DNA of 64,000 nucleotides, taken from NCBI GenBank assembly GCA_020718105.1, contig DYDA01000004.1, positions 6,124 to 70,123 of the forward strand. Direction: 5' to 3'. Position 1 is the stretch's first letter, and each line of letters starts with the position of its first letter. This DNA is from Micavibrio sp. (GTDB lineage: Bacteria; Pseudomonadota; Alphaproteobacteria; UBA9219). Of this stretch, positions 1,454 to 48,132 are shown one piece after another. The translations under genes and the position numbers were made by a program. The notes under the pieces were generated by a model, which did no database searches, was not told where the DNA came from, and saw only the letters and a list, made by a program, of their open reading frames with translations.

Positions 1454-1617
1454 AATAACGTCCCTAAAAACAAAAGCCCCCTTTTTATACAATGGCGTTG
1501 ATGAAAGTAAAAAGGAAAAAGAGGATCCTGCGCCACCCTGTCGTTCTTGGCATAATCCTGTTTCCTTCGTCGTTAATATGGCTTATTTCTTTTGGGTGAT
1601 TCTTTTCCCATTTTACG

Positions 1618-4194
1618 GTGCGTTTTTTGACCCCCATGCCCAAGACTTTGTTCACAAAAGCTCCCCTCATCGCCGTTTTGGCGATGGTTCTGGTCTTTGC
1701 CATCGTCGCGGGGGCGGGGCTGGGGCTGGACTGGCCCCTTTTGCTTGCGGTGGCGGCCCTGGTTTTTGCCGCGGCTGAGGGTGTGGCGTTGTGGAGCCTG
1801 CGGAAAAAAGCAGGGTTGGATGCTCGGTTCCTTCGCCACCTGAAATTCGTCGCAGATCGTCTTCAAGCCACCTTGCGCCATGCACCCATGGGCTATTGCC
1901 TTTTTACGCCGCAAGGCCTTTTGCGTGAGGAGCAGGCGGTGGCCTCGCGCCTTGGTCTTGGAAAACTTACGCACATGGATGAGTTGATCGGCGCGATTAA
2001 GGACAGCGGCGCGTTTTTGGCCGCGTTTCGCAAGCTTCAAACGGCGGGCGAACCTTTTGTGCAGGACATTCATCCTGTGCACGGCGGTGGGCCTTTGCGT
2101 CTTTATGGGCAACGCTTTCGCATTGGGGTCGAGGGGCCGCATATCGATGGGCTCTGGTTTTGTGATTTAAAGGCGGACGACGCCGCTCTGCCCATGCCCG
2201 CCGTTGAGGAAACAGCAAAGAGCGCCTCGCCGCCTGCGGAAAAACCAGCGTCCTTGCTTGCGGCGGCGCCTTCCGGCGGCACAAGTTGCGCTGCGGCGCT
2301 CTCTTCCTCGTCGAAGGATGGCGTGGGCTCGTGTTTTGATGCGCTGCCGTTTCCTGTCTGGGGACGCAATGCGGCGCTTGAGCTGGTGGCGTGCAACAAG
2401 GCCTATGCCAATGTTTTGGAAAGCACGCCAGAGCGCGTTTTGGCGCATCAGCATGAATTGATGCCCCCGCCCTTTAAGGGCGGGCGCACGTTGGCCGCCG
2501 CTGTCTTGGCCAAGGGCGAGGCCATGGAAGTGCGCGATCACGCGGTAATGAGCAGCCAGCGGCGCTTGCTGCAAATTGTTGAACAGCCCTTTGTCAAAGA
2601 GAAGGATGACCCGCGCTCTGTTGTTCTTTTGGGGTTTGCCATCGATGTGACGGCGGAGGAGGAAAAAGGGGCTGAGCTTCGCCGCCATCTTGTTTTGTAT
2701 CATGAGGTGATGGAACATTTAAGCGCCGCTATTTGCGTGTACGATGCGGATAAAAGGTTGGCGTTTTATAATCGCGCCTATCAACGCCTATGGGAGGCGC
2801 AGGACGTCTTTTTGGACAGCAAGCCGATGTTCAGCGATGTTTTGGAAGATTTGCGCGCGCGTCGCCGCATCCCTGAACAAGTGGATTTTCAAAAATACAA
2901 AAAGGAGCAACTGGCGCTTTTCACCTCGCTGCTTGAGCCTCGTGAGGACGTGATCTATCTGCCCGATGAAACCAGCTTGCGCGTGATGGTCGCGCCGCAT
3001 CCGTTGGGCGGCCTTATGTATGTTTATGAAAATGTCACGGATCAATTGGCGTTGGAGACATCGTACAACACATTGATGGCGGTGCAGCGCGAGACGATTG
3101 ATAATTTGGCCGAAGGCATCGCCGTGTTTGGCCCCGACGGAAAGCTGCGCCTTTCCAACGCGGCGCTGGCGACGCTGTGGGATTTGCCAGAGGCGTTTTT
3201 AGAAACAGAGCCGCATGTTTCTGATTTCTTAGAGCAAGCCAAAACGCTTATTTCAACGGAAGATGATTGGGATGCGCGTAAGGCTGAGCTGGTGGGCAAG
3301 GCGCTTCATCGTATGCCACGGTCGGGACGCATGGGCCGAACCGATCAAAAGATTGTTGAGTTTTTGACGGTGCCGTTGCCTGATGGCTCGGTGCTGAACA
3401 GTTTCCTTGACGTTACCGATTCAGCCAAGGTGGAGCAAGCACTTCGCGCCAGCAACGCCGCGCTGGCCACGGCGGATCGTCTGAAATCCGATTTCGTCGC
3501 CAATGTGTCGTATCAGTTGCGCACGCCGCTTAACACCATTACGGGTTTTGCCGAAATTTTGGTGGAGCAGTATTTTGGCGCGCTTAATGAGCGGCAGATG
3601 GATTATACGGCGACGATCAAAACGGAAAGCGAAAAGCTTTCGCGCCTTATCAACAATGTTTTGGATTTGGCGACGATTGAAGCGGGGCGCATGACCTTAG
3701 ACCTTCAATCGGTCGGTGTGGCCGACATTTTGAACGACGCCAAAGCGATGACGGCTGAATGGGCGCGGCAGCAAGCGTTAGAAATTTTAATTGATTGCCC
3801 TTCAACGATGGGCGCGTTTGAGGTGGATGAACAGCGCGTCAAACAGGTTCTTTTCAACCTTATCAGCAACGCGATTAAATACACGCCTGCGGGTGGGCAT
3901 ATCGCGCTGGCCGCATGGCCACAGGACGAATGGGTCGTCATCAGCGTTTTGGACACGGGCGTTGGCATTCCCGAAGACGATCGCGAGCGCATCTTTGGCA
4001 AGTTTGAGCGTGCCAACGCGCATCTTCGCCAAGGCGGCGCTGGATTGGGCCTTAGCCTTGTCAAAAGCTTTGTCGAGTTACACGGTGGCCGCGTTGAGAT
4101 TTTCAGCGACGCAACGGATGGCACGCGCATCAGCTGCTTCTTTCCGCGTAAAGCGCCGAAAAAGGACGAGGCTCTCTTGATCGGTAAGGCGTAA
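1618..4194 (+). CDS. PAS-domain sensor histidine kinase
   Basis: Two N-terminal TM segments. HisKA H-box SYQLRTPLNTITGFAEIL. HATPase_c N/G boxes (LISNAIKYTPAGGHI, DTGVGIP, GGAGLGLSLVKSF). Sits before tsaE, as in many alphaproteobacteria. Confidence 0.85.
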   Translation: MRFLTPMPKTLFTKAPLIAVLAMVLVFAIVAGAGLGLDWPLLLAVAALVFAAAEGVALWSLRKKAGLDARFLRHLKFVADRLQATLRHAPMGYCLFTPQGLLREEQAVASRLGLGKLTHMDELIGAIKDSGAFLAAFRKLQTAGEPFVQDIHPVHGGGPLRLYGQRFRIGVEGPHIDGLWFCDLKADDAALPMPAVEETAKSASPPAEKPASLLAAAPSGGTSCAAALSSSSKDGVGSCFDALPFPVWGRNAALELVACNKAYANVLESTPERVLAHQHELMPPPFKGGRTLAAAVLAKGEAMEVRDHAVMSSQRRLLQIVEQPFVKEKDDPRSVVLLGFAIDVTAEEEKGAELRRHLVLYHEVMEHLSAAICVYDADKRLAFYNRAYQRLWEAQDVFLDSKPMFSDVLEDLRARRRIPEQVDFQKYKKEQLALFTSLLEPREDVIYLPDETSLRVMVAPHPLGGLMYVYENVTDQLALETSYNTLMAVQRETIDNLAEGIAVFGPDGKLRLSNAALATLWDLPEAFLETEPHVSDFLEQAKTLISTEDDWDARKAELVGKALHRMPRSGRMGRTDQKIVEFLTVPLPDGSVLNSFLDVTDSAKVEQALRASNAALATADRLKSDFVANVSYQLRTPLNTITGFAEILVEQYFGALNERQMDYTATIKTESEKLSRLINNVLDLATIEAGRMTLDLQSVGVADILNDAKAMTAEWARQQALEILIDCPSTMGAFEVDEQRVKQVLFNLISNAIKYTPAGGHIALAAWPQDEWVVISVLDTGVGIPEDDRERIFGKFERANAHLRQGGAGLGLSLVKSFVELHGGRVEIFSDATDGTRISCFFPRKAPKKDEALLIGKA

Positions 4195-4198
4195 GGCG

Positions 4199-4666
4199 AT
4201 GGCCGCGCCGCGCCTTCTTCCCCTTGCCGATTTGGCCGCGACGAAGGCTTTGGCTGTGCGCCTTGCGCCGCTTCTTCGCCGCCATGATGTCATTGCGCTG
4301 CGTGGCGCTTTAGGCGCAGGCAAAACAACCTTCGCGCAGTTTCTTTTGCAAGTGCTGGGCGTGCAAGGCGACATCACCAGTCCGACTTTTACATTGGCGC
4401 AGGTTTATGAAACGCCGCGCTTTCCCATTTATCATTTTGATTGGTATCGTTTGAAAACGCCGCAGGAGGTTGAGGAGCTTGGCTTTGATGAGGCCCTTGG
4501 CGATGGCGTTTGTGTGATCGAATGGCCAGAAAAAGCGGAAAGTTATTTGCCGCCTTCGCTTGGCGTTCTTTCTTTGCGTTTTGGCATGGACGCTGAGGCT
4601 GTGCGCTGTGTAACGATAGAGGCGGATGAGGCGTGGGCGCCGCGTCTTTTGGACGGGGGCGTGTGA
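4199..4666 (+). CDS. tsaE: tRNA threonylcarbamoyladenosine biosynthesis protein TsaE
   Basis: 155 aa with P-loop GALGAGKTTF and the conserved FDLYRL-like motif (HFDWYRL). Confidence 0.85.
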   Translation: MAAPRLLPLADLAATKALAVRLAPLLRRHDVIALRGALGAGKTTFAQFLLQVLGVQGDITSPTFTLAQVYETPRFPIYHFDWYRLKTPQEVEELGFDEALGDGVCVIEWPEKAESYLPPSLGVLSLRFGMDAEAVRCVTIEADEAWAPRLLDGGV

Positions 4667-5637
4667 TGGCGGATGAAAAAGCCCTCGACTTTTTTTTGCA
4701 AGGCGCGGGGTGGGGTGGGGCAAGGCGCTGCGCGGTCGCTGCCGATTTTTCTTCGCGCTGTTTTTATCGCCTGACCCGCGAGGGGGCAGAACCGACAAGC
4801 GCGATTTTGATGATCGCCGCGCCGGATCAGAAAACCAAAGAATTTGTTGCTCTCGCTGCTCTTTTACGCGGTCTTGGGCTTGCTGCGCCAGAGATTTATG
4901 CGGCGGACGTGGCGGCGGGCTTGGCGTTGATGCAAGATTTTGGCGAGGACAAAGTCGGGGGTCTTTTGGACGCTGGCCGCGACCCTGCGCTGTTTGATGC
5001 AGGCGCTGCGGCGTTGCTGGCACGGCTGCACAAAAACTTTTCACCAGCGCCTGTCCCTGCGGTGTCGTTCCCCCGTTTTGATGCCGCGCTGTTGGCTCAG
5101 CAAGCGGCGCTGTTTATCGATTTTGCTTTTTTGCGTGAGTCGGGGCGCTGTGCGACAGACGGTGAGCGCGAAGGTTTTATCGCGGCGTGGCAAGAGTCTC
5201 TTGCGCCGTTTGACGCGGCGCTGCCGCGCACATTGTTGCTGCGCGATTTTATGCCCGATAACGCGATGGTGTTAGAGCCTCCCGTGACAGAGCAGACCCT
5301 TGGCGTGATTGATTTTCAGGACGCAGGGATTGGCTCGCCCGCGTATGATCTTGCCTCGTGGTGCGAGGAGGTGAGGCGCGATGGCGGCCTTGCGCGGTTG
5401 CCCTCTTTTGTCGCGGCGTATCACGCGCTGCATCCTGTGGTGGATCAGCCTCTTTTGCTGCAAGCGGCGCGGGTTTATGCCGCGCAGCGTCACACGCGCA
5501 TTCTGGGGATTCTTGTTAAGGTGGGGCGCGAGGCGATGATTCCGCGCGTGACGGATGCGGTTCAATCGTTGTTGCAAGAGGAGGCTCTTGCGCCCGTGCG
5601 GCGTTGGGCAAAGGGTTGCGGGGTGATGGGGGCATGA
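4666..5637 (+). CDS. aminoglycoside phosphotransferase (APH)-family kinase
   Basis: Motif IDFQDAGIGSPAYDLASW is typical of the APH/choline-kinase fold. ATG at 4666 overlaps the tsaE stop (TGATG), so the two are translationally coupled. Confidence 0.7.
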   Translation: MADEKALDFFLQGAGWGGARRCAVAADFSSRCFYRLTREGAEPTSAILMIAAPDQKTKEFVALAALLRGLGLAAPEIYAADVAAGLALMQDFGEDKVGGLLDAGRDPALFDAGAAALLARLHKNFSPAPVPAVSFPRFDAALLAQQAALFIDFAFLRESGRCATDGEREGFIAAWQESLAPFDAALPRTLLLRDFMPDNAMVLEPPVTEQTLGVIDFQDAGIGSPAYDLASWCEEVRRDGGLARLPSFVAAYHALHPVVDQPLLLQAARVYAAQRHTRILGILVKVGREAMIPRVTDAVQSLLQEEALAPVRRWAKGCGVMGA

Positions 5638-6554
5638 CGACGGCTTTCCCTTTTCTGAGCGCTACGGGCATGGTGCTGGCGGCGGGCTTTGGTAAGCGGA
5701 TGCAGCCGTTGACTCTCACAACGCCCAAGCCGTTGCTGAAGGTAGGGGGGCGGGCGATGCTGGATCTTGCCATTGATCATTTGAAGGCGGCGGGGATCAC
5801 GCGGGTTGTCGTCAACGCGCATTATCTGGCGGATCAGGTGGCCGCGCATTGTGCTGGCATTACGGACAGCACCATCCTTTTATCGCGTGAAGATGAAATT
5901 CTAGAAACGGGCGGCGGCGTAAAAAAGGCGTTGAGGGCAGGGTTGTTTCAGTCCTCGTCATTGCGAGCGCAGCGAAGCAATCCAGCGCCGCGCGTCTGCG
6001 CGGTGTGTGAGTCTTATGCGCCGTGGACACGGCGCGGCTGGATCGCCACGCTTCGCTTTGCTTCGCTCGCGATGACGAAAATAATGAGGAAGGCTCAGAA
6101 AAAAAGTAAAATCAAAAAAGAAACAAACAAGCCCTTCTTTGTCCTTGCAGGCGATATGCCGATGACGGAGGGCGCGGCGCCTGCGCTGGCGCGGTTGGCG
6201 CAGGCGTGGAATCCCAAAACGATGGACGTTTTGCTGTTGGTGATGCCGCGTGATAAGGCGCGGGGCTTTTCCGGCAAGGGCGATTTTATGATGCGCGCCG
6301 ATGGCTCTTTGGCGCGGGCTGGTGTAGGCGGCGCGGCGCGGGATGTCGTTTTTATCTCGGCCATGATTGTGAATCCCGTCCTGTATGATGAGGTCAGTGA
6401 ACCCGCTTTTTCGAACAACGTGATTTTTGATTTAGCAGAATCGCGGGGGCGGTTGTTTGGCCTTGTCCATGACGGCGCATGCTATCACGTTGGCACGCCC
6501 GAAGATTTGGCCGAGGCGAACCGGCTTCTTGAAACGGGCGAGGGCTGGCGATGA
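5634..6554 (+). CDS. nucleotidyltransferase (MurU/NTP_transferase family) carrying an in-frame ~60-aa insertion
   Basis: N-terminus LAAGFGKRMQPLTLTTPKPLLKVGG is the classic G-x-G-x-R sugar-nucleotidyltransferase motif. A palindromic DNA element interrupts the reading frame between KKALRAGL and PFFVLAGD. ATGA overlap with the upstream gene. Confidence 0.75.
   Translation: MTTAFPFLSATGMVLAAGFGKRMQPLTLTTPKPLLKVGGRAMLDLAIDHLKAAGITRVVVNAHYLADQVAAHCAGITDSTILLSREDEILETGGGVKKALRAGLFQSSSLRAQRSNPAPRVCAVCESYAPWTRRGWIATLRFASLAMTKIMRKAQKKSKIKKETNKPFFVLAGDMPMTEGAAPALARLAQAWNPKTMDVLLLVMPRDKARGFSGKGDFMMRADGSLARAGVGGAARDVVFISAMIVNPVLYDEVSEPAFSNNVIFDLAESRGRLFGLVHDGACYHVGTPEDLAEANRLLETGEGWR
5957..6128. repeat. 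MITE/REP-like palindromic element inside the nucleotidyltransferase CDS
   Basis: Left arm GTCATTGCGAGCGCAGCGAAGCAATCCAGC (5957-5986) is the imperfect reverse complement of right arm GCTGGATCGCCACGCTTCGCTTTGCTTCGCTCGCGATGAC (6037-6076). Inner hairpin GCGCCGTGgacaCGGCGC. Followed by an A-rich tail to ~6128. Confidence 0.6.
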
Positions 6555-9466
6555 GCGGCGTTTTCACCATCTCTGCAGAGCGGTGTTTTGTAAGAACTTT
6601 GGCGCGTGGCTTGCTGATGCGTGCGGGCGGCGATCCGATGCGTCTTGCCTCTATGCAAATCTATTTGCCGACGCGCCGCGCTTGCCGCGCTTTGCGGCAA
6701 GCGTTTTTACAAGAAACAGAGGCTCGCGCTACGCTTTTGCCGCGTATGCAGCCGTTGGGCGATGTGGAAGAAGACGTGCTTGATTTTATGGACGCGGGCG
6801 CTTTGGACGACTTGCCTCCCGCCATTGAGCCGCTTCGCCGCCAAATGCTTTTAACGCAATTGATTGCGAAGAAAGATCCTGCCTTGCCCTTGGATCAGGC
6901 GGCGGCGTTGGCGCAGGCGCTGGCGGCGCTTTTGGATCAGGCGCAAACGACGGGTTGCGCCTTAACGCAGTTTGGCGCGCTGGTGGCCGACGATTATGCG
7001 CAGCATTGGCAAGAAACGCTTTCGTTTTTGGAAATCGTGACAGAGGCGTGGCCCAAGGTGTTGCTTGATGAAGGCTGTGTTGATCCAGCCTCGCGGCGCG
7101 TTGCGGTTTTGGATCGTCAAGCCAAGGCGTGGGAAGCCGCCCCACCTCTCCATCCGATTATCGTGGCGGGATCAACAGGCTCACAGCCCGCCGTTGGCCG
7201 CTTGATGAAAGTGATTGCCGCTTTGCCGCAAGGCGAGGTGATTTTGCCCGCGCTGGATTTATCGTTGGAAGAAGAGGCGTGGCAAGCGATTGGCGAGACG
7301 CATCCGCAATTCACGATGAAGGTGTGGTTGGACGAATCAGGCTTTAAGCGCGAGGTCGTGCGGGGGTGGGATGCTCTTTCTGATAAGCCTGCCGCGCCGC
7401 CACGCGTGCGCCTGTTGCAAGAGTCGCTACGTCCCGCCGAGGTCACGGAAAGCTGGCAACATCTGACACCGCATGCGATTCCGCCCGAAGCTTTTGCGGG
7501 GCTTGAGGTCTTGACATTGGATCATGCCCGCGAAGAGGCGGACGTGATCGCGCTGCGCCTTCGCGCCGCGTTGGAGGAAGACGGGAAAACGGCGGCGCTT
7601 GTCACGCCCGATCGCGCTTTGGCGGCGCGGGTTGCGGCGGCGCTCACGTGCTGGGGGTTGGAGGTCAATGATTCGGCGGGCACACTGCTGGATTTGTCGC
7701 CTGTGGGGCGTTTTTTGATCGATGCGTTTAAGGCCGCCGATGCTGGCGCTGGCGCGATAGAGTTTCTGACATTGCTTAAACACCCGCTGGCCGCGATGGG
7801 CTTGCCCTTAGCGCAAGGGCGCTCTTTGACGCAAGAGGTTGAAGTAAAACTATGGCGTGGGGTGCGCCGCGCAGATGGTTTGACAGGCCATGGCGCGTTA
7901 AGCGTGGAAGGCGATGCGTGGCTGGCGCGGCTTCATGCGCTGGTATCGCCTCTTTCGCAAAGCTGGCAGACGAAAAAGACGATTGCCGCATGGCTTGATG
8001 CGCATTTGGCGCTGGCCGAAGGGTTGGCGCAAAGCGAAAGCGACGTGGGCGCGGCACGTCTTTGGCGAGGAAGCGATGGTGAGGCAGCGGCGCTGGCGCT
8101 GGATGATTGGCGTGGCGCAAGCCATGATTTCATGGCCGTGACGGGGCGCGAGTATCTGGCGTTGTTTGAATCGCTTTTGCATCAGATAACTTTGCGCCCC
8201 ACCTATGGCCAGCACCCGCGTTTGCATATTCTGGGGCCTCTTGAGGCGCGTCTTTTACAGCATGACGTGATCATTTTAGGCGGCATGAATGAGGGCACAT
8301 GGCCCCCGCAAGCAACCCTTGATCCATGGCTCTCGCGGCCCATGAAAAAACAATTGGGCTTGCCTTTGCCGGAAAAGCGCATCGGGCTTAGCGCCCATGA
8401 CTTTGCGCAACTTGCCAGCGCCCCGCAAGTCATGATGACCCGCGCAAAGCGTGTGGGGGGCGCCCCTGCCGTTCCATCGCGTTTTTGGTTGCAGCTTGGC
8501 GCGGTCTTGCAAGCCGCAGGTTATGACAAAACGGCTTTAGCGCCTAGGCTCCCATGGCAAGCTTGGGCGCGAGGCATGGATGCGCCCACCGCGCAGCCCG
8601 CGCCTTTTGCGCCGCCGTGCCCTTGTCCTTGCCTTGCCTTGCGGCCTCAAAAACTTTCCGTTACGGAAATTGGCGTGTGGCTTAGCAACCCTTATGCGAT
8701 TTATGCCAAGCATATTTTAAAGTTGAAAAAGCTGGAGCCTATCGATGCCGACCCCGCGATGGCGGATTTTGGCACGATTGTTCACGGCGCTTTAGAGGCT
8801 TTTGTGCGGGGGGATGAGCTGACCCTTGATCGCTTGCTGACCTGTGGGCGCAAGGCGTTTGCGCCGTTTGAGGATAGGCCGCAGATTGCGGCGTTCTGGT
8901 GGCCGCGCTTTGAGCGCATAGCCGCATGGTTTGTGGCCAATGAAAAGGTGCGACGCGCCGCAGGGATCCTGCCCATGGCCGTTGAGGCGCGGGGCACCAT
9001 GGCTTTTGCGAACGGGCGGTTGACGTTGATAGGCCGCGCTGATCGGATCGATCGCCTTGCGGATGGAAGCGTTCAGATTATCGATTACAAGACGGGCACG
9101 CCGCCTTCGCGCACGAAAGTGCTGGCGGGGTATGAACCTCAATTAGCGCTGCTGGCTTTAATGGCGCAGGCGGGCGCGTTTGAGGAAGTGGCCGCTGCGT
9201 CTGTGACGTCTATGGCTTATTGGGCGCTGCAAGAAAAGGACGATAAAAAGAAAATCGTCGCTTTTGATCAAACAGCGGCGGCGCAATGCGACAAGGCGCA
9301 AGAAGGCCTTGATAATCTTATCACTGCTTTTGCCGATCCCGCCACGGCGTATGCGGCCGTGCCGCGCCCGCATGTTGCGCCCCGCTTTGACGATTACGCG
9401 CATTTGGCGCGGTTGGCCGAAGGCCTTGGGGAGCAAGGGCATGGTTCTGAAAGCGAGGGTGCATGA
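6551..9466 (+). CDS. addB: double-strand break repair protein AddB (alpha type)
   Basis: 971 aa immediately upstream of, and overlapping, addA. C-terminal RecB-family nuclease motif (IIDYKTG). No helicase Walker A, as in alphaproteobacterial AddB. Confidence 0.8.
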   Translation: MSGVFTISAERCFVRTLARGLLMRAGGDPMRLASMQIYLPTRRACRALRQAFLQETEARATLLPRMQPLGDVEEDVLDFMDAGALDDLPPAIEPLRRQMLLTQLIAKKDPALPLDQAAALAQALAALLDQAQTTGCALTQFGALVADDYAQHWQETLSFLEIVTEAWPKVLLDEGCVDPASRRVAVLDRQAKAWEAAPPLHPIIVAGSTGSQPAVGRLMKVIAALPQGEVILPALDLSLEEEAWQAIGETHPQFTMKVWLDESGFKREVVRGWDALSDKPAAPPRVRLLQESLRPAEVTESWQHLTPHAIPPEAFAGLEVLTLDHAREEADVIALRLRAALEEDGKTAALVTPDRALAARVAAALTCWGLEVNDSAGTLLDLSPVGRFLIDAFKAADAGAGAIEFLTLLKHPLAAMGLPLAQGRSLTQEVEVKLWRGVRRADGLTGHGALSVEGDAWLARLHALVSPLSQSWQTKKTIAAWLDAHLALAEGLAQSESDVGAARLWRGSDGEAAALALDDWRGASHDFMAVTGREYLALFESLLHQITLRPTYGQHPRLHILGPLEARLLQHDVIILGGMNEGTWPPQATLDPWLSRPMKKQLGLPLPEKRIGLSAHDFAQLASAPQVMMTRAKRVGGAPAVPSRFWLQLGAVLQAAGYDKTALAPRLPWQAWARGMDAPTAQPAPFAPPCPCPCLALRPQKLSVTEIGVWLSNPYAIYAKHILKLKKLEPIDADPAMADFGTIVHGALEAFVRGDELTLDRLLTCGRKAFAPFEDRPQIAAFWWPRFERIAAWFVANEKVRRAAGILPMAVEARGTMAFANGRLTLIGRADRIDRLADGSVQIIDYKTGTPPSRTKVLAGYEPQLALLALMAQAGAFEEVAAASVTSMAYWALQEKDDKKKIVAFDQTAAAQCDKAQEGLDNLITAFADPATAYAAVPRPHVAPRFDDYAHLARLAEGLGEQGHGSESEGA

Positions 9467-12400
9467 CAGAACAAAGTTTTTCTCTATCGTCCCCCGCGCC
9501 TGAAAAGGAAAAGGGTTTTTTAGGTGACGTTAATGCGGCGCAACGCGCAGCGGCGGATCCGGCCGTGTCCGCGTGGGTCGGCGCATCGGCAGGATCGGGA
9601 AAGACAAAGGTGTTGGCCGATCGTGTCACGCGCCTTTTGCTGGAGGGGGTGAGGCCAGAGAAGATTTTGTGTCTGACCTTCACCCGCGCCGCTGCGGCTG
9701 AAATGTCCATTCGCCTGACGCAGCGTCTTTCGCGTTGGGCTGTGTGCGACGATGCGGCGCTGGATCATGATTTGGATTCTCTTTTGGGACTGCCTGCGAA
9801 GGAGGGGCAGCGCCTTCGCGCAAGGCGGTTGTTCGCGGGCGTTTTAGCGTGCGCGGGCGGCATGCGCTTTGTCACGATCCATGCTTTCGCGCAGGAAATC
9901 TTGCGCCGCTTTCCTTTAGAGGCGGGCGTGTCCCCCACTTTTTCGGTGATCGAGGAAGCGGACGCGCATGCTTTGTGGCAAGAGGCGCAGGGCGCTCTCC
10001 TGCAAGAAATCGCGCAGCAAAAAGACGGCGCGGCAGCGCAAGCGTTTGCCGCGTTGATCGATGTCATGGCCGAGGAAACCATGAGCGCGTTATTGCGCGA
10101 TGCTGCGTCTCATGCCCCGCGTGTGAAGGAGGCGGCGGCCACAGCGGGCGGCTTGCCCGCTCTTCTTCAAACGATGCGCAGCGCGTTAGAGTTGGAGCCG
10201 CAGGATTCGTCCGCGCTGTTTGATGCGGTGGCGGCGCGGGAAGGTGCGTTTGATCGTGCCGCGCTGTTGGCTGTGGCAAGGGCGCTGGCGGAAAAGGCTT
10301 CACCTCAATATGCGCCTCGTGGACAGATTATTTTGGATTGGTTGGAGACGGATGAGGCGGGACGCATCGCCACGTTGAATCTTTATGCGCGGGCGTTTTT
10401 GACAGACAAAGGGGAGCCTTTTGCGAAGGTTGCCGATAAAAAATGGCTTGAGGCCAACCCTGCGTATGAAAAGCCCCTGCGGACGGAAGAAGCGCGGATC
10501 ATTCGCTTGATGGAGCGGCGCGACACCTGCCGCATCGCGCAGGAAACCGCTGCTGCGTTGACACTGTCTTGGCGAATGGTTGATCTTTATGAGGCTCAAA
10601 AAACGCGCCGCGCCGCGCTGGATTACAACGATTTAATTGAAAAGGCGGGCGATGTGTTGTCCAAGGCAGGCAGCGCCGCTTGGGTTTTGTACAAACTGGA
10701 TGGCGGCATTGACCATATCTTGTTGGACGAAGCGCAAGACACCAACCCCGCGCAGTGGCGCATCGTGCAAGCGTTGACGGATGAGTTTTTTGCCGGAGAA
10801 AGCGCCCGCAGTAACGTGGGGCGCACGGCTTTTGTCGTGGGCGATGAAAAGCAATCCATTTATAGCTTTCAGGGCGCGGACGTTGCCGTCTTTGCCAAAA
10901 TGCGCGGCGCGTTTGAAAAGCGGATCACGGAGTCGGGAAGGCCGTTTCGCTCGGTTCCGATGAACGTATCGTTTCGCTCTGCCCCTGTCGTTCTTCGCGC
11001 CGTTGATTGGGTTTTTGAGGCTGATGCGGCAAGGCAAGGCGTGTCCTTGCAGCCTGTTACGCATCAGGCCTTTCGTCAAGACGCAACAGGGCGGGTAGAG
11101 GTTTGGCCTCTGTTGGTCGCAGGCGAGGATGAAGAAAAAAAGCCAAAGGCGTTGAAAGAAGCCATTGATTGGGGAATGCCTTGGGGCTACCGCGCCGCGC
11201 CCGATCCTGCCGCGCAGTTGGCGGCGCAGATCGCGCAGCAGATTAAGGCGTGGGTGACAAGCGGGCATACCGTTTATGATCGCGACCAAAAGGGCGAGCG
11301 CCCCATGACTTATGGCGACGTGATGGTGCTGGTGCAAAAGCGCGGCACGCTGGTTCCGCACTTGGTGGCGGCTTTGAAAAAAGCGGGCGTGGCTGTGTCG
11401 GGCGTGGATCGTATGCGCTTGACCTCTCAATTGGCCGTGATGGATTTGATGGCGCTTTTGCAGTTTCTTTTATTGCCACGCGATGATTTGACTTTGGCGA
11501 CTGTTTTGCGTGGACCCCTTATGGGGATAAGCGAAGAGGCGTTGATGGCGCTGGCTATAGGGCGCGGCACGCAAAGTTTGTGGGAGCGGTTGGGGGATGC
11601 GGCAACAGAAGAAAGCGAAAGAATTGAAAAAGAAAAAAGAAAACGGGATCCCCGCTTTCGCGGGGATGACGATGGAGGACAAGGCTGCAACAAAAATGCC
11701 GTCATGCCCGTGAAAACGGGCATCCCGTTTGTTTCTTGTGACGTTTCCGGTTGTGCTCCCTTCGCTTGCGTTTATGCCTATCTTCGCGCGTTGCTGGCCA
11801 AGGCGGATGGGCTATCGCCGCTCGCGCTTTTAATGATGGTCCTAAGCGACCCTTGTCCTGCCGATGCGGTGAGCGGAAGACGGGCGATGGTATCGCGCCT
11901 TGGCATCCAAGCCGAAGACCCGATGGATGAGCTTTTGGGGGCGGCTGAAGATTTCGGGACGCGCCGCGCCCCCTCCCTTCAGGCCTTTTTACACTGGCTG
12001 ACGGAAAGCGAGGCCGAGATCAAGCGCGAGATGGAAGCCGCAGGGGGGCGCGTGCGCGTGATCACGGTCCATGGCTCTAAGGGGCTGGAGTCGCCCGTTG
12101 TGATTTTGCCCGATGCCGCCCTTGAACCAAGCCGAGGTAAGCTGCCCAAGATTTTATGGGATGAGGCGCGGCGCGTGCCGTTTTATGTGCCGCGTGAGTC
12201 TTTGAACGGGCGGCTGGCCGCGCTGCGTGGGCAGGCGCGAGAGCGGCAATTAGAGGAATATCGCCGTTTGCTTTACGTGGCGATGACTCGCGCCGCTGAT
12301 CGGCTTTATATCGGTGGTTTTGTGAAAAGCGAGCCGAAGGAACCTTCCAAAAAGAAAGAGGTGGTTGATTCGTGGTATGCTCTTGTCTCCCGCGCCCTTG

Positions 12401-13158
12401 CGCCCCATCATCAGGCCGACGTTGTGGCGGGCGCGGCGCTTTTGCCGCCAACGATTGTGCTGGCCGATTATGCGACGAGCGTGGACATACGGATAAAGGG
12501 CACAGAAGAAAAAAATAAAAAGATAGCCGCGCCTTTGCCTCCCTTGCTGCCTTCGTGGCTTTTTGCTCCGCCGCCACCAGAGCCTTTGCCGCCGCGCCCG
12601 CTTGTGCCCTCACGCCCCAGCGAGGCGGAGGAAAATGCAACCCCACCTTCTGTATCGCCACAGGATGCGCGGTTTGCGCGTGGCCGCTTGATCCATCGCC
12701 TGTTGCAAAACCTTCCCGATGTTGCGGCGGAAAAAAGAGAAGCGGCCGCAAGACGGCTGTTGGCGCGGCCAGCGCATCAGTTGACGCCTGTCGCGCAAAA
12801 AGAAATCGCCCATGAAGCTCTGCGGCTTATGGAGGATCCGCGTTTCGCGCCGTTGTTTGGGAAAGAGAGCCGCGCCGAAGTTCCTGTGATCGGCCTTGCC
12901 TCAGGGCGCTTGATTTCGGGGCAAGTGGATCGCCTTGTTTTGATGGAGGGGGAGGTTTGGATCGTGGATTACAAAACCAACCGCCCTCCGCCCGCCGATT
13001 CCGCGCTCATTCCCGCCGCTTACAGGGCGCAGATGGAGGCTTACCGCACGGTGCTGCGGGCGGTTTATCCAGACCGCTTTATCCGGTGCTTTTTGTTGTG
13101 GACATACGCGCCAAAAATGATGGAAATAACCCAACCAGCTGATATATCAAGAGAATAA
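9463..13158 (+). CDS. addA: double-strand break repair helicase AddA
   Basis: UvrD/Rep helicase motifs (GSAGSGKTKVL, LLDEAQDTNP). C-terminal RecB nuclease motif (VDYKTN). ATGA overlap with addB. Length 1231 aa includes an apparent palindromic insertion. Confidence 0.9.
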   Translation: MTEQSFSLSSPAPEKEKGFLGDVNAAQRAAADPAVSAWVGASAGSGKTKVLADRVTRLLLEGVRPEKILCLTFTRAAAAEMSIRLTQRLSRWAVCDDAALDHDLDSLLGLPAKEGQRLRARRLFAGVLACAGGMRFVTIHAFAQEILRRFPLEAGVSPTFSVIEEADAHALWQEAQGALLQEIAQQKDGAAAQAFAALIDVMAEETMSALLRDAASHAPRVKEAAATAGGLPALLQTMRSALELEPQDSSALFDAVAAREGAFDRAALLAVARALAEKASPQYAPRGQIILDWLETDEAGRIATLNLYARAFLTDKGEPFAKVADKKWLEANPAYEKPLRTEEARIIRLMERRDTCRIAQETAAALTLSWRMVDLYEAQKTRRAALDYNDLIEKAGDVLSKAGSAAWVLYKLDGGIDHILLDEAQDTNPAQWRIVQALTDEFFAGESARSNVGRTAFVVGDEKQSIYSFQGADVAVFAKMRGAFEKRITESGRPFRSVPMNVSFRSAPVVLRAVDWVFEADAARQGVSLQPVTHQAFRQDATGRVEVWPLLVAGEDEEKKPKALKEAIDWGMPWGYRAAPDPAAQLAAQIAQQIKAWVTSGHTVYDRDQKGERPMTYGDVMVLVQKRGTLVPHLVAALKKAGVAVSGVDRMRLTSQLAVMDLMALLQFLLLPRDDLTLATVLRGPLMGISEEALMALAIGRGTQSLWERLGDAATEESERIEKEKRKRDPRFRGDDDGGQGCNKNAVMPVKTGIPFVSCDVSGCAPFACVYAYLRALLAKADGLSPLALLMMVLSDPCPADAVSGRRAMVSRLGIQAEDPMDELLGAAEDFGTRRAPSLQAFLHWLTESEAEIKREMEAAGGRVRVITVHGSKGLESPVVILPDAALEPSRGKLPKILWDEARRVPFYVPRESLNGRLAALRGQARERQLEEYRRLLYVAMTRAADRLYIGGFVKSEPKEPSKKKEVVDSWYALVSRALAPHHQADVVAGAALLPPTIVLADYATSVDIRIKGTEEKNKKIAAPLPPLLPSWLFAPPPPEPLPPRPLVPSRPSEAEENATPPSVSPQDARFARGRLIHRLLQNLPDVAAEKREAAARRLLARPAHQLTPVAQKEIAHEALRLMEDPRFAPLFGKESRAEVPVIGLASGRLISGQVDRLVLMEGEVWIVDYKTNRPPPADSALIPAAYRAQMEAYRTVLRAVYPDRFIRCFLLWTYAPKMMEITQPADISRE
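11630..11740. repeat. hairpin-forming palindromic element inside addA
   Basis: CGGGATCCCCGCTTTCGCGGGGATGACG and GCCGTCATGCCCGTGAAAACGGGCATCCCG are near self-complementary. Preceded by an A-rich tract. Shares the GCGGG(G)ATGACG motif with the element at 44599-44806. Confidence 0.4.
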
Positions 13159-18606: not shown

Positions 18607-21036
18607 ATGACTCTTTTTGCTAAACATAAAATCAATTACCGCGATTTTATTCGCGATGTGCGCCCCGCCTCTGTGCGGATCAAGGAGTATTGGAACAAGC
18701 CCGATATTTTTGCGGCTGTTGCGATTATGGCTGTTATTGGCGTTTTAGCATCACCGGTTACGGCGGCTTGGAGTGATGCGATCCTTATCTTTATGATTTT
18801 TTATGCGCGTTGGGTTTTGCTTAAAACGTCGTTTGAACTTCCTTTGAAGATGCCGATGCAGGCCGCGCCCTTGCCCGATCCGCATAATCCTAAACCCGGA
18901 AAAGGCGGCGCAGGTAAGTCGGAAGGTATTTTATACCTTGGTAATTTGGATGAGGAAAAGCATCCGGAAAATGGGCGCGAGCTTTGGCTCACCAACGCCG
19001 ATGCCCGCACGCATATGTTGTTTTTGGGAACGACAGGTTCGGGCAAGACAGAGGGGCTTAAGTCGCTGGTCGCCAATTCTCTGACATGGGGATCGGGCTT
19101 CGTTTATGTTGATGGTAAGGCCGATACGGATTTGTGGGCCTCGCTTTATGCTTTGGTGCGGCGGTTTGGTCGCGACGATGATATTTTGGCGCTTAACTAC
19201 ATGACCGCGAACTCGGATAGCGGCGCGGTATCGAATACGATGAATCCGTTTTCCAACGGCTCTGCGTCTTATATCACCAACATGGTTGTTAGTTTGATGC
19301 CTGACGCAGGCGGCGATAACGCCATGTGGAAAGAACGTGCCGTGGCTTTGATGGGCGCGCTTATGCCCGCGCTGACGTGGAAGCGTGATCGCGGCGATAT
19401 CTTACTCGATGTCAGCGCTTTGCGCGATTACATTGAATTGCCCGCGATCATTCGCCTTTCGCGTGATCCTGATTTGCCAGAGCGCATTTTGCGTGGCCTG
19501 CAGGGGTATTTAACGACATTGCCAGGTTATATTGATGCGGCGTTTGATGACGAAGGAAACGAGAAGCCGCCTTCGCCCGATCAGCCCATGTATGATTTGC
19601 AAGTGGCGCGGCAACAACATGGCTATTTGTCCATGCAGTTTACGCGTTCCTTGCAATCACTGGCCGATGATTATGGTTATATTTTCCGCGCTCAATTGGC
19701 CGATGTCGATGTTTTGGATGTTGTCATCAATCGCCGCGTTCTTGTCGTTTTGATCCCTTCGCTTGAGAAATCGGGCGATGAAGCGGCAAACCTTGGTAAA
19801 ATCGTTGTGGCCAGCATGAAGGGCATGATGGGCGCGACGCTGGGCAACACGGTCGAAGGCAGTTGGGAAAGTGCGATTGGCAGCAAGCAAACGCGCTCAC
19901 AATCGTCGTTCATGGCCGTGTTTGACGAGGTGGGGTATTACACCGCGCCCGGTATGGCCGTGATGGCGGCGCAAGCGCGTTCCCTTGGATTCTCGCTCAT
20001 CTTTGCGGCGCAGGATTTGCCGTCGATGGAAAAACGCGTCAAGCAAGAGGCGCAGTCTATTTTGGCGAACTGTAACTTGAAGATTTTCGGCAAGATTGAA
20101 GACCCCGGTGACACGAAAAAGTTTTTTGAGGATCATGCAGGCTCGGAGTTCGTGATGGATGCCAGCGGCATGGAGGCAAGGCACGACACCGTTTCAAGTA
20201 TGTTTTTGTCGCATGCTTTTTATGACAACCATAAATCCACAGGCTTGCAGGTTCGTCCTCGCGCTGTTTATGATCATTTGCGTGGACAGCGTGAAGGCGA
20301 AGTCCATATGCTCTTCGCGCAGTATATCGTTCGTGCCCGTATGTTTTATGCTGTTCCGGATAGGGCGGGCGCTTTGCGGGTGCATAAACTTTTGCCCGTT
20401 CCTGCAACCACGGATCTGCTTAAGAATCGCGAACGGATCATCGCTGAGGTGGCCACGCGACTCAATGATTCGTCATGGACAGCGGCCAGTGCCGCGCCTG
20501 CACAAAAAACGCCGCCTGAAATTGCTGGCCTTGTTGCGGGGCTTGAGGCCGCTAAAGCTGCGGGGAAAACCGCTGTTGAGGCGGTCGCGGCGGCGGTCGG
20601 CGGATTGCCTAAGGTGGTCACGTCGCCTCAGCGTTTGTTTGAGGGGGATGATGGGACTGCGGCGGCTCCGGCGACAAGCGCTCATCCAAAAAGCGCCTCG
20701 TCAAAGAGCGGTGGCGGTGTCGGGAGTTCTGTCGTTATGCCGTGGGAGACGCCAGCGGGCGCGCCTTCGGCGCAGACGCCAACAGATGCGCCTTCAGCGC
20801 AGGGGGCCGAAGACTTGTTGGAATCTTTTGAGGAAAGCCCTATGGACGGGGTGGATACCAGCGGATTCCTTCCTCATGATCTTGATACCAGCATCGTGCC
20901 GCGTGTCGAGGTTGAGGGAGACGGCACGGACATCACAAAGTTAAAACTGCCCGATGACATGACGGCCTATCTTGAAAACATGGCAGATAAGCTGAACAAA
21001 GGGCTTGGCAGCGATGCCGCAAAGGATACGGATTAA
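18607..21036 (+). CDS. DotL/IcmO-like type IV coupling protein (VirD4/TraG family ATPase)
   Basis: 809 aa. N-terminal TM pair. Walker A LGTTGSGKTEGLKS and Walker B-like VFDEVGY. Long acidic, disordered C-terminal tail (EDLLESFEESPMDGVDTSGF...) resembling the adaptor-binding tail of DotL. Confidence 0.65.
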   Translation: MTLFAKHKINYRDFIRDVRPASVRIKEYWNKPDIFAAVAIMAVIGVLASPVTAAWSDAILIFMIFYARWVLLKTSFELPLKMPMQAAPLPDPHNPKPGKGGAGKSEGILYLGNLDEEKHPENGRELWLTNADARTHMLFLGTTGSGKTEGLKSLVANSLTWGSGFVYVDGKADTDLWASLYALVRRFGRDDDILALNYMTANSDSGAVSNTMNPFSNGSASYITNMVVSLMPDAGGDNAMWKERAVALMGALMPALTWKRDRGDILLDVSALRDYIELPAIIRLSRDPDLPERILRGLQGYLTTLPGYIDAAFDDEGNEKPPSPDQPMYDLQVARQQHGYLSMQFTRSLQSLADDYGYIFRAQLADVDVLDVVINRRVLVVLIPSLEKSGDEAANLGKIVVASMKGMMGATLGNTVEGSWESAIGSKQTRSQSSFMAVFDEVGYYTAPGMAVMAAQARSLGFSLIFAAQDLPSMEKRVKQEAQSILANCNLKIFGKIEDPGDTKKFFEDHAGSEFVMDASGMEARHDTVSSMFLSHAFYDNHKSTGLQVRPRAVYDHLRGQREGEVHMLFAQYIVRARMFYAVPDRAGALRVHKLLPVPATTDLLKNRERIIAEVATRLNDSSWTAASAAPAQKTPPEIAGLVAGLEAAKAAGKTAVEAVAAAVGGLPKVVTSPQRLFEGDDGTAAAPATSAHPKSASSKSGGGVGSSVVMPWETPAGAPSAQTPTDAPSAQGAEDLLESFEESPMDGVDTSGFLPHDLDTSIVPRVEVEGDGTDITKLKLPDDMTAYLENMADKLNKGLGSDAAKDTD

Positions 21037-31294: not shown

Positions 31295-31339
31295 GAACCA
31301 AAGTAGAACAAAAAACCCCCTTTTGTTCTACTTTGGCTC
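31295..31339. promoter_or_regulatory. LexA operator(s), alphaproteobacterial GTTC-N7-GTTC type, upstream of lexA
   Basis: GAACcaaagtaGAAC at 31295-31309 is a perfect direct-repeat box. GTTCtactttgGCTC at 31325-31339 is an imperfect inverted copy 15 nt downstream. Both lie ~35-75 nt upstream of the lexA ATG. Confidence 0.6.
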
Positions 31340-43839: not shown

Positions 43840-44538
43840 TTGACCTTTCTATCCCTTTCTCTTGGCGTCGGGCAGCGGCTTGACGCCAAGGGGACGGTTT
43901 CAAAGAATAGTGTTCCGTCCAAGGGCCAGTTTGAAAAAACGCTTGGACGCGATTCTTTTTCTTGCCGTTGCTGCGGGTTCACTTCCCCAAAATACCAACG
44001 CGTTCTTTCCGTGAGCGCCCTTTCTTCGGGAAAGGGTGGCGGGGAGGATTTTGTGGCGGTCTGTTCCTTTTGTGAGCTGACGGCAACGCTTGACCGTGCG
44101 GGCCAGACAGCGGCGGGTTATGTGATCTGGTTGCCTGAGCTATCGCAAGGCGATCTCAACCACGTTATGCACGCGCTTTATATTGCGCGCGAAAGCGCCC
44201 ATGCTGAATTATCCAAAGCGGCCTCTCGCACCTTGGATGTTTTGACGGCAAGGCGGGCTGAGGCCAAGAAGCGGCTGGGCACGGATGATCCTTTGATTTT
44301 TGCCACGGCTCTTTTAGAGCAGGTGGAGCCAGCCCATGATGCCGCACGAGCGGCGCGGTTAGAGGGGCTTCGTTTTTTGCCGCTTGATCGTTACTTTGTT
44401 CCCGTTCGCGGCAAAGAAACCAACGTATTTCCGCAAATGCTGGCCTATTGGGCCTCTGCCGAAGGCCCTTACGGAAAGCTGCCTGTTGAGCAGTGGACGG
44501 CGCTGTTTGATGATGTGACCGCAAAAGCTGGCGCGTAA
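43840..44538 (+). CDS. DotN/IcmJ-like Cys-rich cytoplasmic protein (tentative)
   Basis: 232 aa (IcmJ is 208 aa). Cys clusters CRCCGF and CSFCEL. Occupies the icmJ position after the icmC/icmD-like genes. TTG start with AAGAGGG RBS. Confidence 0.35.
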   Translation: MTFLSLSLGVGQRLDAKGTVSKNSVPSKGQFEKTLGRDSFSCRCCGFTSPKYQRVLSVSALSSGKGGGEDFVAVCSFCELTATLDRAGQTAAGYVIWLPELSQGDLNHVMHALYIARESAHAELSKAASRTLDVLTARRAEAKKRLGTDDPLIFATALLEQVEPAHDAARAARLEGLRFLPLDRYFVPVRGKETNVFPQMLAYWASAEGPYGKLPVEQWTALFDDVTAKAGA

Positions 44539-44598: not shown

Positions 44599-44806
44599 TT
44601 CGTCATCCCGCACGAAGCCTTGCGCGAAGCGCGCTAGGCGAAGATGCGGGACCCAGGGGGCTGGGGACGATGCCGTGGTTATTGCGGCAAGAAAAAAGCT
44701 TTTCAGCTGGGTCCCGCATCTTCGTCCCGCTATAGCTGATCCCACTGCTGTCCGGCATAGTCCGAAGGACGAAGACGGAAGGGCGTAGAGGGGTGCGGGA
44801 TGACGA
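44599..44806. repeat. MITE-like element with 15-bp terminal inverted repeats
   Basis: TTCGTCATCCCGCAC (44599-44613) is the reverse complement of GTGCGGGATGACGAA (44792-44806). Internal inverted pair GAAGATGCGGGACCCA / TGGGTCCCGCATCTTC. A-rich centre. Confidence 0.6.
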
Positions 44807-44898: not shown

Positions 44899-46664
<1,766 letters not shown>

Positions 46665-47858: not shown

Positions 47859-47933
47859 AAGTTTTTAATCCGGTAAAGTTGAAGGAGTATACCTAAAACA
47901 GTTCAAAAGGTGGAAAAGGCAAGCACACTCAAT

Positions 47934-48074
47934 CACCCTCCCCTTGCGGGAGGGTCGGAAAACGCGTGAGCGTTTTTCGGGGAGGGGTCGTTTTTCATTG
48001 TGTTTTGACCCCTCCCCAAGATTTTTTCTCCCTACGGGATCAAAAATCTTGTGCCCTCCCGCAAGGGGAGGGCG
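47934..48074. repeat. compound palindromic element (five hairpins) with terminal inverted repeats
   Basis: Terminal hairpins CCCTCCCcttgcGGGAGGG (47936-) and CCCTCCCgcaagGGGAGGG (-48072) are mutually inverted. Internal stems GGGGAGGGGTC...GACCCCTCCCC (11 bp) and AAGATTTTT...AAAAATCTT (9 bp). Confidence 0.6.
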
Positions 48075-48132
48075 ATTTTAGTGCCAACTCTTCATTCACG
48101 ATGGGTCTATAGCTTAACGGACAGGACAAGCG

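Follow-up and report, generated by a model that had tools for sequence, protein, structure and literature searches.

An in-frame CGTC REP-like palindromic dimer in a MurU-like nucleotidyltransferase gene of a Micavibrio-like alphaproteobacterium

We studied a 64,000-nucleotide (nt) stretch of Micavibrio sp. DNA (contig DYDA01000004.1; the whole stretch is called the window in the following), in which a MurU-like nucleotidyltransferase gene (murU), i.e., the open reading frame (ORF) 5634-6554 (+), carries a palindromic insert. A previous sequence-only reading had proposed that a repeated palindromic element lies in frame within this gene. Our results agree with that proposal, since the ORF is open across the insert and the palindrome has many relatives elsewhere. 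With a probability of roughly 0.8, we interpret the insert as a dispersed, non-autonomous dimer resembling CGTC-tagged repetitive extragenic palindromic (REP) units, one that landed in a loop of MurU and was kept as a translated, tolerated passenger.

The extent of the insert follows from a comparison with orthologs. Among 3941 homologs (E <= 1e-10), the 306-amino-acid (aa) form is confined to a single protein, the identical P0001. The segment is missing from 15/15 aligned homologs, which include the closest non-identical orthologs P0002 (83% identical) and P0003 (82%) with a length of 246-251 aa. Where orthologs encode 5 residues (AYFSG), the window encodes 65 (RAGLFQSS...KKETN), which matches the earlier estimate of about 60 extra codons. 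The same is observed on the DNA level when the window is compared with L001, a related genome whose murU is uninterrupted. Respective blastn alignments form two collinear blocks (window 1549-5933 = L001 5918-10300; window 6128-8814 = L001 10315-13001). That is, between the breakpoints (window 5933/6128 vs. L001 10300/10315), 194 nt stand in place of 14 nt, which gives a net gain of 60 codons in murU. The breakpoints were taken from blastn; a MAFFT alignment of the window and L001 DNA misplaced the gap. Together, the alignments identify the segment as a lineage-specific insertion. Repeat-free orthologs encoding the same residues would have spoken against it, and none of the aligned orthologs does so. 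The limits first proposed (5941-6130) delineate the right segment, only its start has to be moved to 5934. The parts of the insert and its host gene are as follows.

5634..6554, + strand: host gene, MurU-like N-acetylmuramate-1-phosphate uridylyltransferase (Pfam, MurU structures, core fit of the AlphaFold2 (AF2) model, gene order)
5934..6128, + strand: whole lineage-specific segment, 65 codons for 5 ortholog codons (protein alignment, blastn breakpoints)
5934..5955, + strand: left junction AGGGCAGGGTTGTTTCAGTCCT (manual comparison with L001; putative boundary)
5956..5985, + strand: left arm, REP-like unit CGTC-ATTGC-GAGCGCAGCGAA-GCAAT-CCAG (family consensus match, exact pattern match)
5986..6037, + strand: structured spacer of 52 nt with local hairpins at 5985-6006 and 6018-6035 (inverted-repeat and folding analysis)
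6038..6077, - strand: right arm CGTC-ATCGC-GAGCGAAGCAAAGCGAAGCGTG-GCGAT-CCAG, a longer variant with the compensated stem ATCGC/GCGAT (arm comparison, family covariation)
6078..6128, + strand: A-rich tail encoding KIMRKAQKKSKIKKETN, 51 nt, 26% GC (composition; outside the palindrome family proper)

The core (5956-6077) is an imperfect palindrome, in which both arms follow the layout CGTC-AT..GC...GC..AT-CCAG with the tags facing outward. The long imperfect inverted repeat described earlier is thus present, namely as 24-nt outer arms (5955-5978 / 6055-6078; 88% complementary) and a second tier of 26-nt arms (5966-5991 / 6032-6057; 77% complementary). From the internal perfect hairpins, the 8-bp stem 6018-6025 / 6028-6035 is retained, with the loop of this small hairpin corrected to 2 nt (GCGCCGTG-GA-CACGGCGC). 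The RNA of 5941-6135 is predicted to fold with -86.5 kcal/mol compared to -61.9 +/- 4.4 kcal/mol for 200 dinucleotide shuffles (z = -5.65), none of which (0/200) folds as stably. The 30-nt arm is observed once in the window, given a chance expectation of nil. Concerning composition, the palindrome has a GC content of 66%, the tail (6078-6128) of 26% and the window of 52.7%. Only 1/3 sense frames is open across the segment, which is the frame of murU.

The ortholog counterpart of the left junction AGGGCAGGGTTGTTTCAGTCCT is GCATATTTTTCGGGC, and the initial 16-22 nt of the junction are probably in part diverged host sequence. The junction ends with the pyrimidine-rich run usual ahead of the CGTC tag; in 174 arms from other genomes, the 10 nt preceding the tag are depleted in G and enriched in C/T. 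We also considered an outer repeat (5934-5949 / 6120-6135) as the true ends of the element. It matches at 13/16 positions, but one of its arms runs into conserved host codons, and a match this good could be due to chance (about 0.15 expected in the region, a rough estimate). Reading the segment as an intron or intein was ruled out as well, without a match to an Rfam intron model, and so was an intrinsic terminator, since no such site was predicted on either strand of the insert.

To place the palindrome among its relatives, we scanned with GTCATYGCGAGCGMAGCRAAGC using one genome per species, which yielded at least 120 loci. That the palindrome has these many relatives speaks against the outcome that would have contradicted the sequence-only reading, i.e., an element unique in the genome and without palindromic relatives. 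The following family statistics refer to the matches listed. Their hosts comprise Bradyrhizobium, Sphingomonadales, Acetobacteraceae, Micavibrio, Legionellales and Coxiellaceae, and furthermore Planctomycetota, Chitinophagales, Chloroflexota, Acidobacteriota and Omnitrophota. From the loci L003-L122 we extracted 88 complete elements, which are 67-121 nt long (mostly 73-120 nt). Their arm consensus is CGTCATTGCGAGCG.AGCGAAGCAATCCAG, which is fitted by the left arm of the window as well as by the right one. The whole element can be summarized as c-CGTC-ATTGCGAG-[CGAAGC, GAGCGAAGCGAC or larger hairpin]-GAAGCAAT-CCAG, followed by a variable spacer and the inverse copy. For the sequence d(GCGAAGC), a very stable mini-hairpin has been described. 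The base ahead of GTCAT is C in 82% of the 174 arms from other genomes (here, GTC was preset by the search pattern).

Copies of the family are mainly intergenic, and among the long ORFs spanning an element we found 0 genuine interrupted genes. Apparent cases of an element within a long ORF in GC-rich genomes turned out to be spurious antisense ORFs, intergenic read-through or located upstream of the true start. In an Omnitrophota metagenome-assembled genome (L067 4545-7142), an element separates two tandem GT4 glycosyltransferase modules without closing the frame (stop-to-stop ORF of 866 aa), which is due either to an intergenic spacer being read through or to a gene fusion mediated by the repeat.

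The 29-nt arms are near-identical from Bradyrhizobium to Chloroflexota, Planctomycetota and Omnitrophota. More than 120 IMG/VR contigs classified as viral (L126-L205 among them; phage DNA or host flanks) contain a 22-nt arm motif, which is also repeated on (mega)plasmids of Novosphingobium and Methylobacterium (NZ_CP017076.1, NZ_CP039697.1, NC_010510.1), where the matches coincide with no annotated feature. Rfam searches of the region at a permissive threshold, of the whole window and of eight family loci provided just chance miRNA matches and one tRNA. A literature search by sequence and by peptide strings of the palindrome led to unrelated primers alone. The ATTGCGAG-type palindrome is thus very widespread and, as far as we found, without a published name.

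Next, we compared the element with described repeat classes. CGTC-tagged REPs were introduced by Di Nocera, De Gregorio & Rocco (2013, BMC Genomics 14:522; PMC3733652), who distinguish the families CGTC-1 to CGTC-4. Respective units start with a CGTC tag, continue with a stem beginning with AT and close with a CCA tail; they form heads-outward dimers with spacers of 20-100 nt, are commonest in Alphaproteobacteria (Micavibrio included) and have no known dedicated transposase, and the loops of Bradyrhizobium CGTC-1 units are atypical (PMC3733652). The murU element shows the terminal unpaired CGTC tag (TGTC/CCTC being tolerated) at 5956-5959 and, on the minus strand, at 6077-6074. Both arms have the AT-starting stem and short CCA tail (ATTGC...GCAAT-CCAG left, ATCGC...GCGAT-CCAG right). 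They form an inverted dimer with a 52-nt and thus fitting spacer, and its family is multi-copy, dispersed and mainly intergenic. That is, the murU palindrome has, on sequence grounds, the architecture of a heads-outward CGTC REP dimer. The likeness extends to the often structured spacers, to the alphaproteobacterial prevalence (Micavibrio, Bradyrhizobium, sphingomonads) and to in-frame copies found now and then within genes, DNA-repair genes in particular. Unlike CGTC REPs, the murU family has a 5-bp stem (ATTGC/GCAAT) around a GCGAAGC-rich interior of 12-22 nt, and the murU copy has an additional A-rich tail. Neither the exact arm sequence nor the typical peptides (..LAMT, ..RNDG, ..RSNP) were found in the text or the available supplement files of PMC3733652.

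The element had first been called MITE-like (MITE, miniature inverted-repeat transposable element). A classical MITE would be a deletion derivative of an insertion sequence, moved by a DDE transposase recognising GTCATTGCGAG... terminal inverted repeats. Terminal inverted repeats are indeed present and long, the size is small (73-120 nt), and copies are dispersed over many genomes as well as over the plasmids and IMG/VR contigs given above. What such an origin fails to explain is the lack of target-site duplications: exact direct repeats with k >= 3 flank only 0-1/87 copies (element-edge offsets 0-5; 0/87 at the palindrome edge itself), i.e., chance level, and none is seen at the murU junctions. 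Furthermore, the roughly 4 kb surveyed to either side of the 120 loci show no recurrent linked transposase. When their 2128 ORFs are clustered all against all, 11 loci are the most in which any protein family neighbours the element, and the top neighbour clusters are ABC-F ATPases, histidine kinases, SDR dehydrogenases, GGDEF-EAL proteins and acyl-CoA ligases. Since no target-site duplication and, within these 4-kb flanks, no recurrent transposase was found and the termini bear the CGTC/CCA signature of REPs, we do not consider the element a classical MITE and rate this origin as improbable.

The architecture is also similar to that of REPINs, i.e., REP doublets mobilized by REP-associated tyrosine transposases (RAYTs). 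In both, two inverted REP-like units form one long hairpin, no target duplication is left, and the whole dimer including its spacer is the copied unit, as indicated by an L001 sibling with the same spacer (see below). In contrast to REPINs, the murU element has a CGTC rather than a GTAG tag, and no RAYT was found within about 4 kb of the copies at the 120 loci. REPIN-RAYT systems, attributed to Bertels & Rainey, depend on Y1 HUH tyrosine transposases (bioRxiv 10.1101/2021.07.10.451892, 10.1101/2022.05.22.493013) and have been described as inherited mostly vertically within individual lineages (10.1101/2022.05.22.493013), in contrast to the near-identical arms across phyla in the murU family. 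Alphaproteobacteria encode few or no Y1 transposase homologs (PMC6006769).

Two L001 loci link the palindrome to canonical CGTC REPs. At 20459-20577, between rplT and pheS, L001 has an intergenic full sibling of the murU palindrome (77.6% over 125 nt) including the spacer (20489-20548). At 270-378, a hybrid combines canonical CGTC-1 arms (ATTCCCGC-GAAA-GCGGGAAT, one of them degenerate) with a murU-type spacer (293-352; 83% over 60 nt). Since the murU-type spacer occurs with either CGTC-1 or ATTGCGAG-type arms, arms and spacers look like exchangeable modules, and the hybrids tie the widespread ATTGCGAG-type palindrome to the CGTC REP superfamily.

We then evaluated whether the host gene still works. 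ORF 5634-6554 has the Pfam domains NTP_transf_3 (6e-14) and NTP_transferase (3e-13), and the closest solved structures are MurU 4Y7T (2.5e-21) and 8HHD. The sequence alignment to the MurU structures breaks exactly past residue 100 (...GGGVKKAL). Given the nucleotidyltransferase fold, the motifs and the adjacent gene for an AmgK-like kinase, the ORF is a MurU-like uridylyltransferase of putative activity. All invariant columns of an alignment of 16 sequences (window protein included) are kept. Relative to L001, the ratio of nonsynonymous to synonymous substitution rates (dN/dS) is 0.136 upstream (100 codons) and 0.105 downstream (141 codons) of the insert, with dS of about 0.58; both gene halves are under purifying selection. 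In the AF2 model (mean predicted local distance difference test score, pLDDT, of 86), values below 50 are found only at residues 116-129. The predicted core superimposes on MurU 4Y7T/4Y7V with a target-normalised template modelling score of 0.88-0.90 and a root-mean-square deviation of 2.2-2.7 A (Foldseek), i.e., the fold of the enzyme core is intact in the model. Conservation and model are consistent with a tolerance of the insert at the protein level.

Further REP inserts are found in the same operon. Compared to L001 AddA, the AddA of the window has 49 extra residues (..EKRKRDPRFRGDD..AVMPVKTGIP..), encoded in frame at 11604-11769. In this insert, the heads of two canonical CGTC-1 units, 11648-11671 (-) and 11700-11727 (+), point inward; an A-rich arm GAAAAAGAAAAAAGAAAAC and a T-rich arm TTTGTTTCTT flank the pair. 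Conversely, addB of L001 (10738-13803) encodes 50 extra aa (VIPAKAGIPCVEKRKRDSRLRGSD...) from a heads-outward CGTC-1 dimer (L001 13002-13181) that is absent from the AddB of the window. All indels within the 11.7 kb of synteny between the window and L001 (3/3; those in murU and addA of the window and the one in addB of L001) are REP inserts through which the reading frame continues, which points to a selection filter acting repeatedly. A more distant murU (P0021, 284 aa) has a ATTGCGAG-type copy as well, elsewhere in the gene and again in frame (L123 6251-6352; insert peptide ..PSLQDAESAVAIQ...GLLHCARNEG), which, judged by sequence, is an insertion independent of the one in the window. An overrepresentation of intragenic REPs in genes for replication and repair, among them those for recBCD-type nucleases and UvrD/Rep helicases, is known (PMC3733652), and the involvement of the recombination/repair genes addA and addB next door matches this bias noted in 2013.

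According to our interpretation, the palindromic repeat would have inserted into the loop that connects the GGGxKKAL helix to the strand with the conserved xGD motif, and would have been retained as translated sequence without leaving a target-site duplication. Its mobility may involve a single-stranded hairpin intermediate and an enzyme acting in trans. The insert would have survived because its net length is a multiple of three, because its sole open frame is that of murU, and because the site is a surface loop such that the core still folds.

Several observations weigh against this interpretation. A piece of this kind keeps the frame intact by chance in about 1 of 3 cases, which makes the open frame weak evidence alone. 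The window contains no second copy of the palindrome within its 64 kb. The 51-nt tail and the 22-nt left junction are not accounted for by the palindrome family, such that the insertion may be composite or reworked. Moreover, a CGTC REP unit should fold on its own (8-9 bp stem, 4-5 nt loop), while the murU arms have a 5-bp stem and an interior of 12-22 nt. Folded alone as DNA, the arms have energies between -2.7 and -4.6 kcal/mol (z = 0 to +0.65), as compared with -9.8 kcal/mol (z = -4.1) for a canonical CGTC-1 unit of this window. Without predicted folding of their own, the arms thus depart from the published unit definition. The short unit stem nonetheless seems to matter, as suggested by a T:A to C:G covariation within arms: GCGAT is found in 5/8 arms with ATCGC vs. 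3/156 arms with ATTGC.

Finally, dN/dS is unable to date the insertion, which leaves some room for a very recent inactivation. In this scenario, murU would be a pseudogene whose frame is open by luck, with a neutral insertion since AmgK/MurU recycling, a salvage route that bypasses MurA, would be dispensable. Beside the frame odds of 1 in 3, the -86 kcal/mol hairpin fits this idea, as it could hamper translation of the mRNA. Yet the downstream dN/dS is as low as the upstream one, murU has neither frameshift nor stop, and its stop codon overlaps the addB start, i.e., the operon architecture is intact. Also the exclusively in-frame REP indels of the operon and the confidently modelled core fold disagree with decay, and we regard a recent loss of function as about as improbable as the MITE origin.

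The opposite extreme would be that the segment has become a functional, selected loop extension derived from repeat DNA, e.g., a Lys-rich interaction helix. In the Lys-rich part of the tail, the AF2 model has a helix (residues 133-157; block-mean pLDDT of about 62-80), and the tail lies outside the generic repeat and could have been shaped after the insertion. We nevertheless consider such an exaptation very improbable: the segment is known from a single protein cluster among the 3941 homologs, pLDDT is moderate for the helix and does not reach 50 at residues 116-129, and with 77-88% self-complementarity left, the palindrome has been little reshaped on the DNA level. Most likely, the about 60 extra residues are a tolerated passenger, modelled as a disordered stretch plus a Lys-rich helix, rather than a new functional domain.

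The A-rich tail had been regarded as part of the element. This view was dropped, since the tail is missing from every other readable copy of the palindrome, namely from the L001 sibling and the 88 other copies. The window contains its final 11 nt (AAGAAACAAAC) at exactly two positions, one of them here and the other adjoining a CGTC-1 unit of addA. The tail resembles GAAAAAAGAAAAC, which adjoins CGTC-1 units in addA, in L001 addB and at an unrelated intergenic locus (L125). A metagenome scan with the A-rich tail gave no match, and a scan with the A-rich motif plus a CGTC-1 unit gave one locus, which is intergenic. The tail may be what is left of a composite element or of an adjacent unit that was lost.

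We also related the insert to Rickettsia palindromic elements (RPEs; reviewed in PMC10969869). Both are palindromic, in frame in conserved housekeeping genes, tens of residues long and apparently compatible with the fold, and a clustering as seen for RPEs is observed with several inserts in one small region (murU and addA; addB in the relative). Differences concern the sequence and base composition (66% GC core) and the host. Judging by the 'Bdellovibrionales' labels of the nearest homologs and by where NCBI places Micavibrio, this host is probably not Rickettsia but a Micavibrio-like alphaproteobacterium with a free-living or predatory lifestyle. RPE-4 and RPE-6 have been equated with CGTC-4 and CGTC-1 REPs, respectively (PMC3733652), and on this basis the likeness would reflect relatedness within a described superfamily rather than rare convergence. 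The assumption that in-frame palindromes are unusual outside such lineages does not stand: in-frame intragenic GTAG and CGTC REPs are listed for many free-living species (PMC3733652), and in-frame MITE fusions are 'not unusual' according to a 2024 review. Outside Rickettsia, REPs within genes and in frame have been documented before, and the murU insert adds a further example.

The order tsaE / APH-type kinase (AmgK-like) / murU / addB / addA is also found in L001 and L123. In the window, the stop of the APH-family gene overlaps the murU start, and the four other operon genes are located as follows.

4199-4666: tsaE, upstream of the APH/AmgK-like kinase gene
4633-5637: APH/AmgK-like kinase gene, directly upstream of murU
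6551-9466: addB, downstream of murU
9463-13158: addA, last of the five listed operon genes, 1231 aa

Elsewhere in the window, three other palindromes were observed. At 44600-44730, an intergenic CGTC-variant palindrome (CGTC-ATCCCGCA...ATGCGGGA-CCCAG; 18-nt perfect inner arms) has converging long ORFs on its two sides, 43840-44538 (+) and 44899-46548 (-), and a homolog is located at the non-syntenic position 4537-4668 of L001 (73% over 136 nt). An intergenic 147-nt palindrome at 47931-48077 with CCCTCCCCTTGCGGGAGGG-type hairpins (24-nt arms, 96% complementary) has divergent ORFs on either side and looks like a different repeat family. Finally, 31295-31339 forms an AT-rich hairpin with 19-nt arms (95% complementary; GAACCAAAGTAGAACAAAA / TTTTGTTCTACTTTGGCTC) and a 7-nt loop.

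With regard to annotation, a conserved enzyme is lengthened by 60 residues through the repeat, and recognising the palindrome prevents mis-annotation. Elsewhere, it gives rise to many spurious ORF peptides (RHCERSEAIQ...LLRRFAPRNDG, SLRGAKRRSNP...DCFASLAMT, VIASEAKQS). On a larger scale, this lineage could be a second, GC-richer 'Rickettsia-type' case, in which CGTC-REP palindromes colonise coding regions at high frequency, and the ATTGCGAG-type element could at the same time be a horizontally travelling hairpin copied by a widely conserved enzyme instead of a lineage-bound RAYT. The former part draws on the three in-frame inserts in one five-gene operon across two genomes, the latter on the near-identical 29-nt arms across phyla and the occurrence in viral contigs; we consider the joint scenario speculative and unlikely to hold as a whole. 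The murU insert itself is a clear-cut case, with a relative showing the empty site, and it supports the view that REP-type palindromes can be absorbed into proteins outside Rickettsia.

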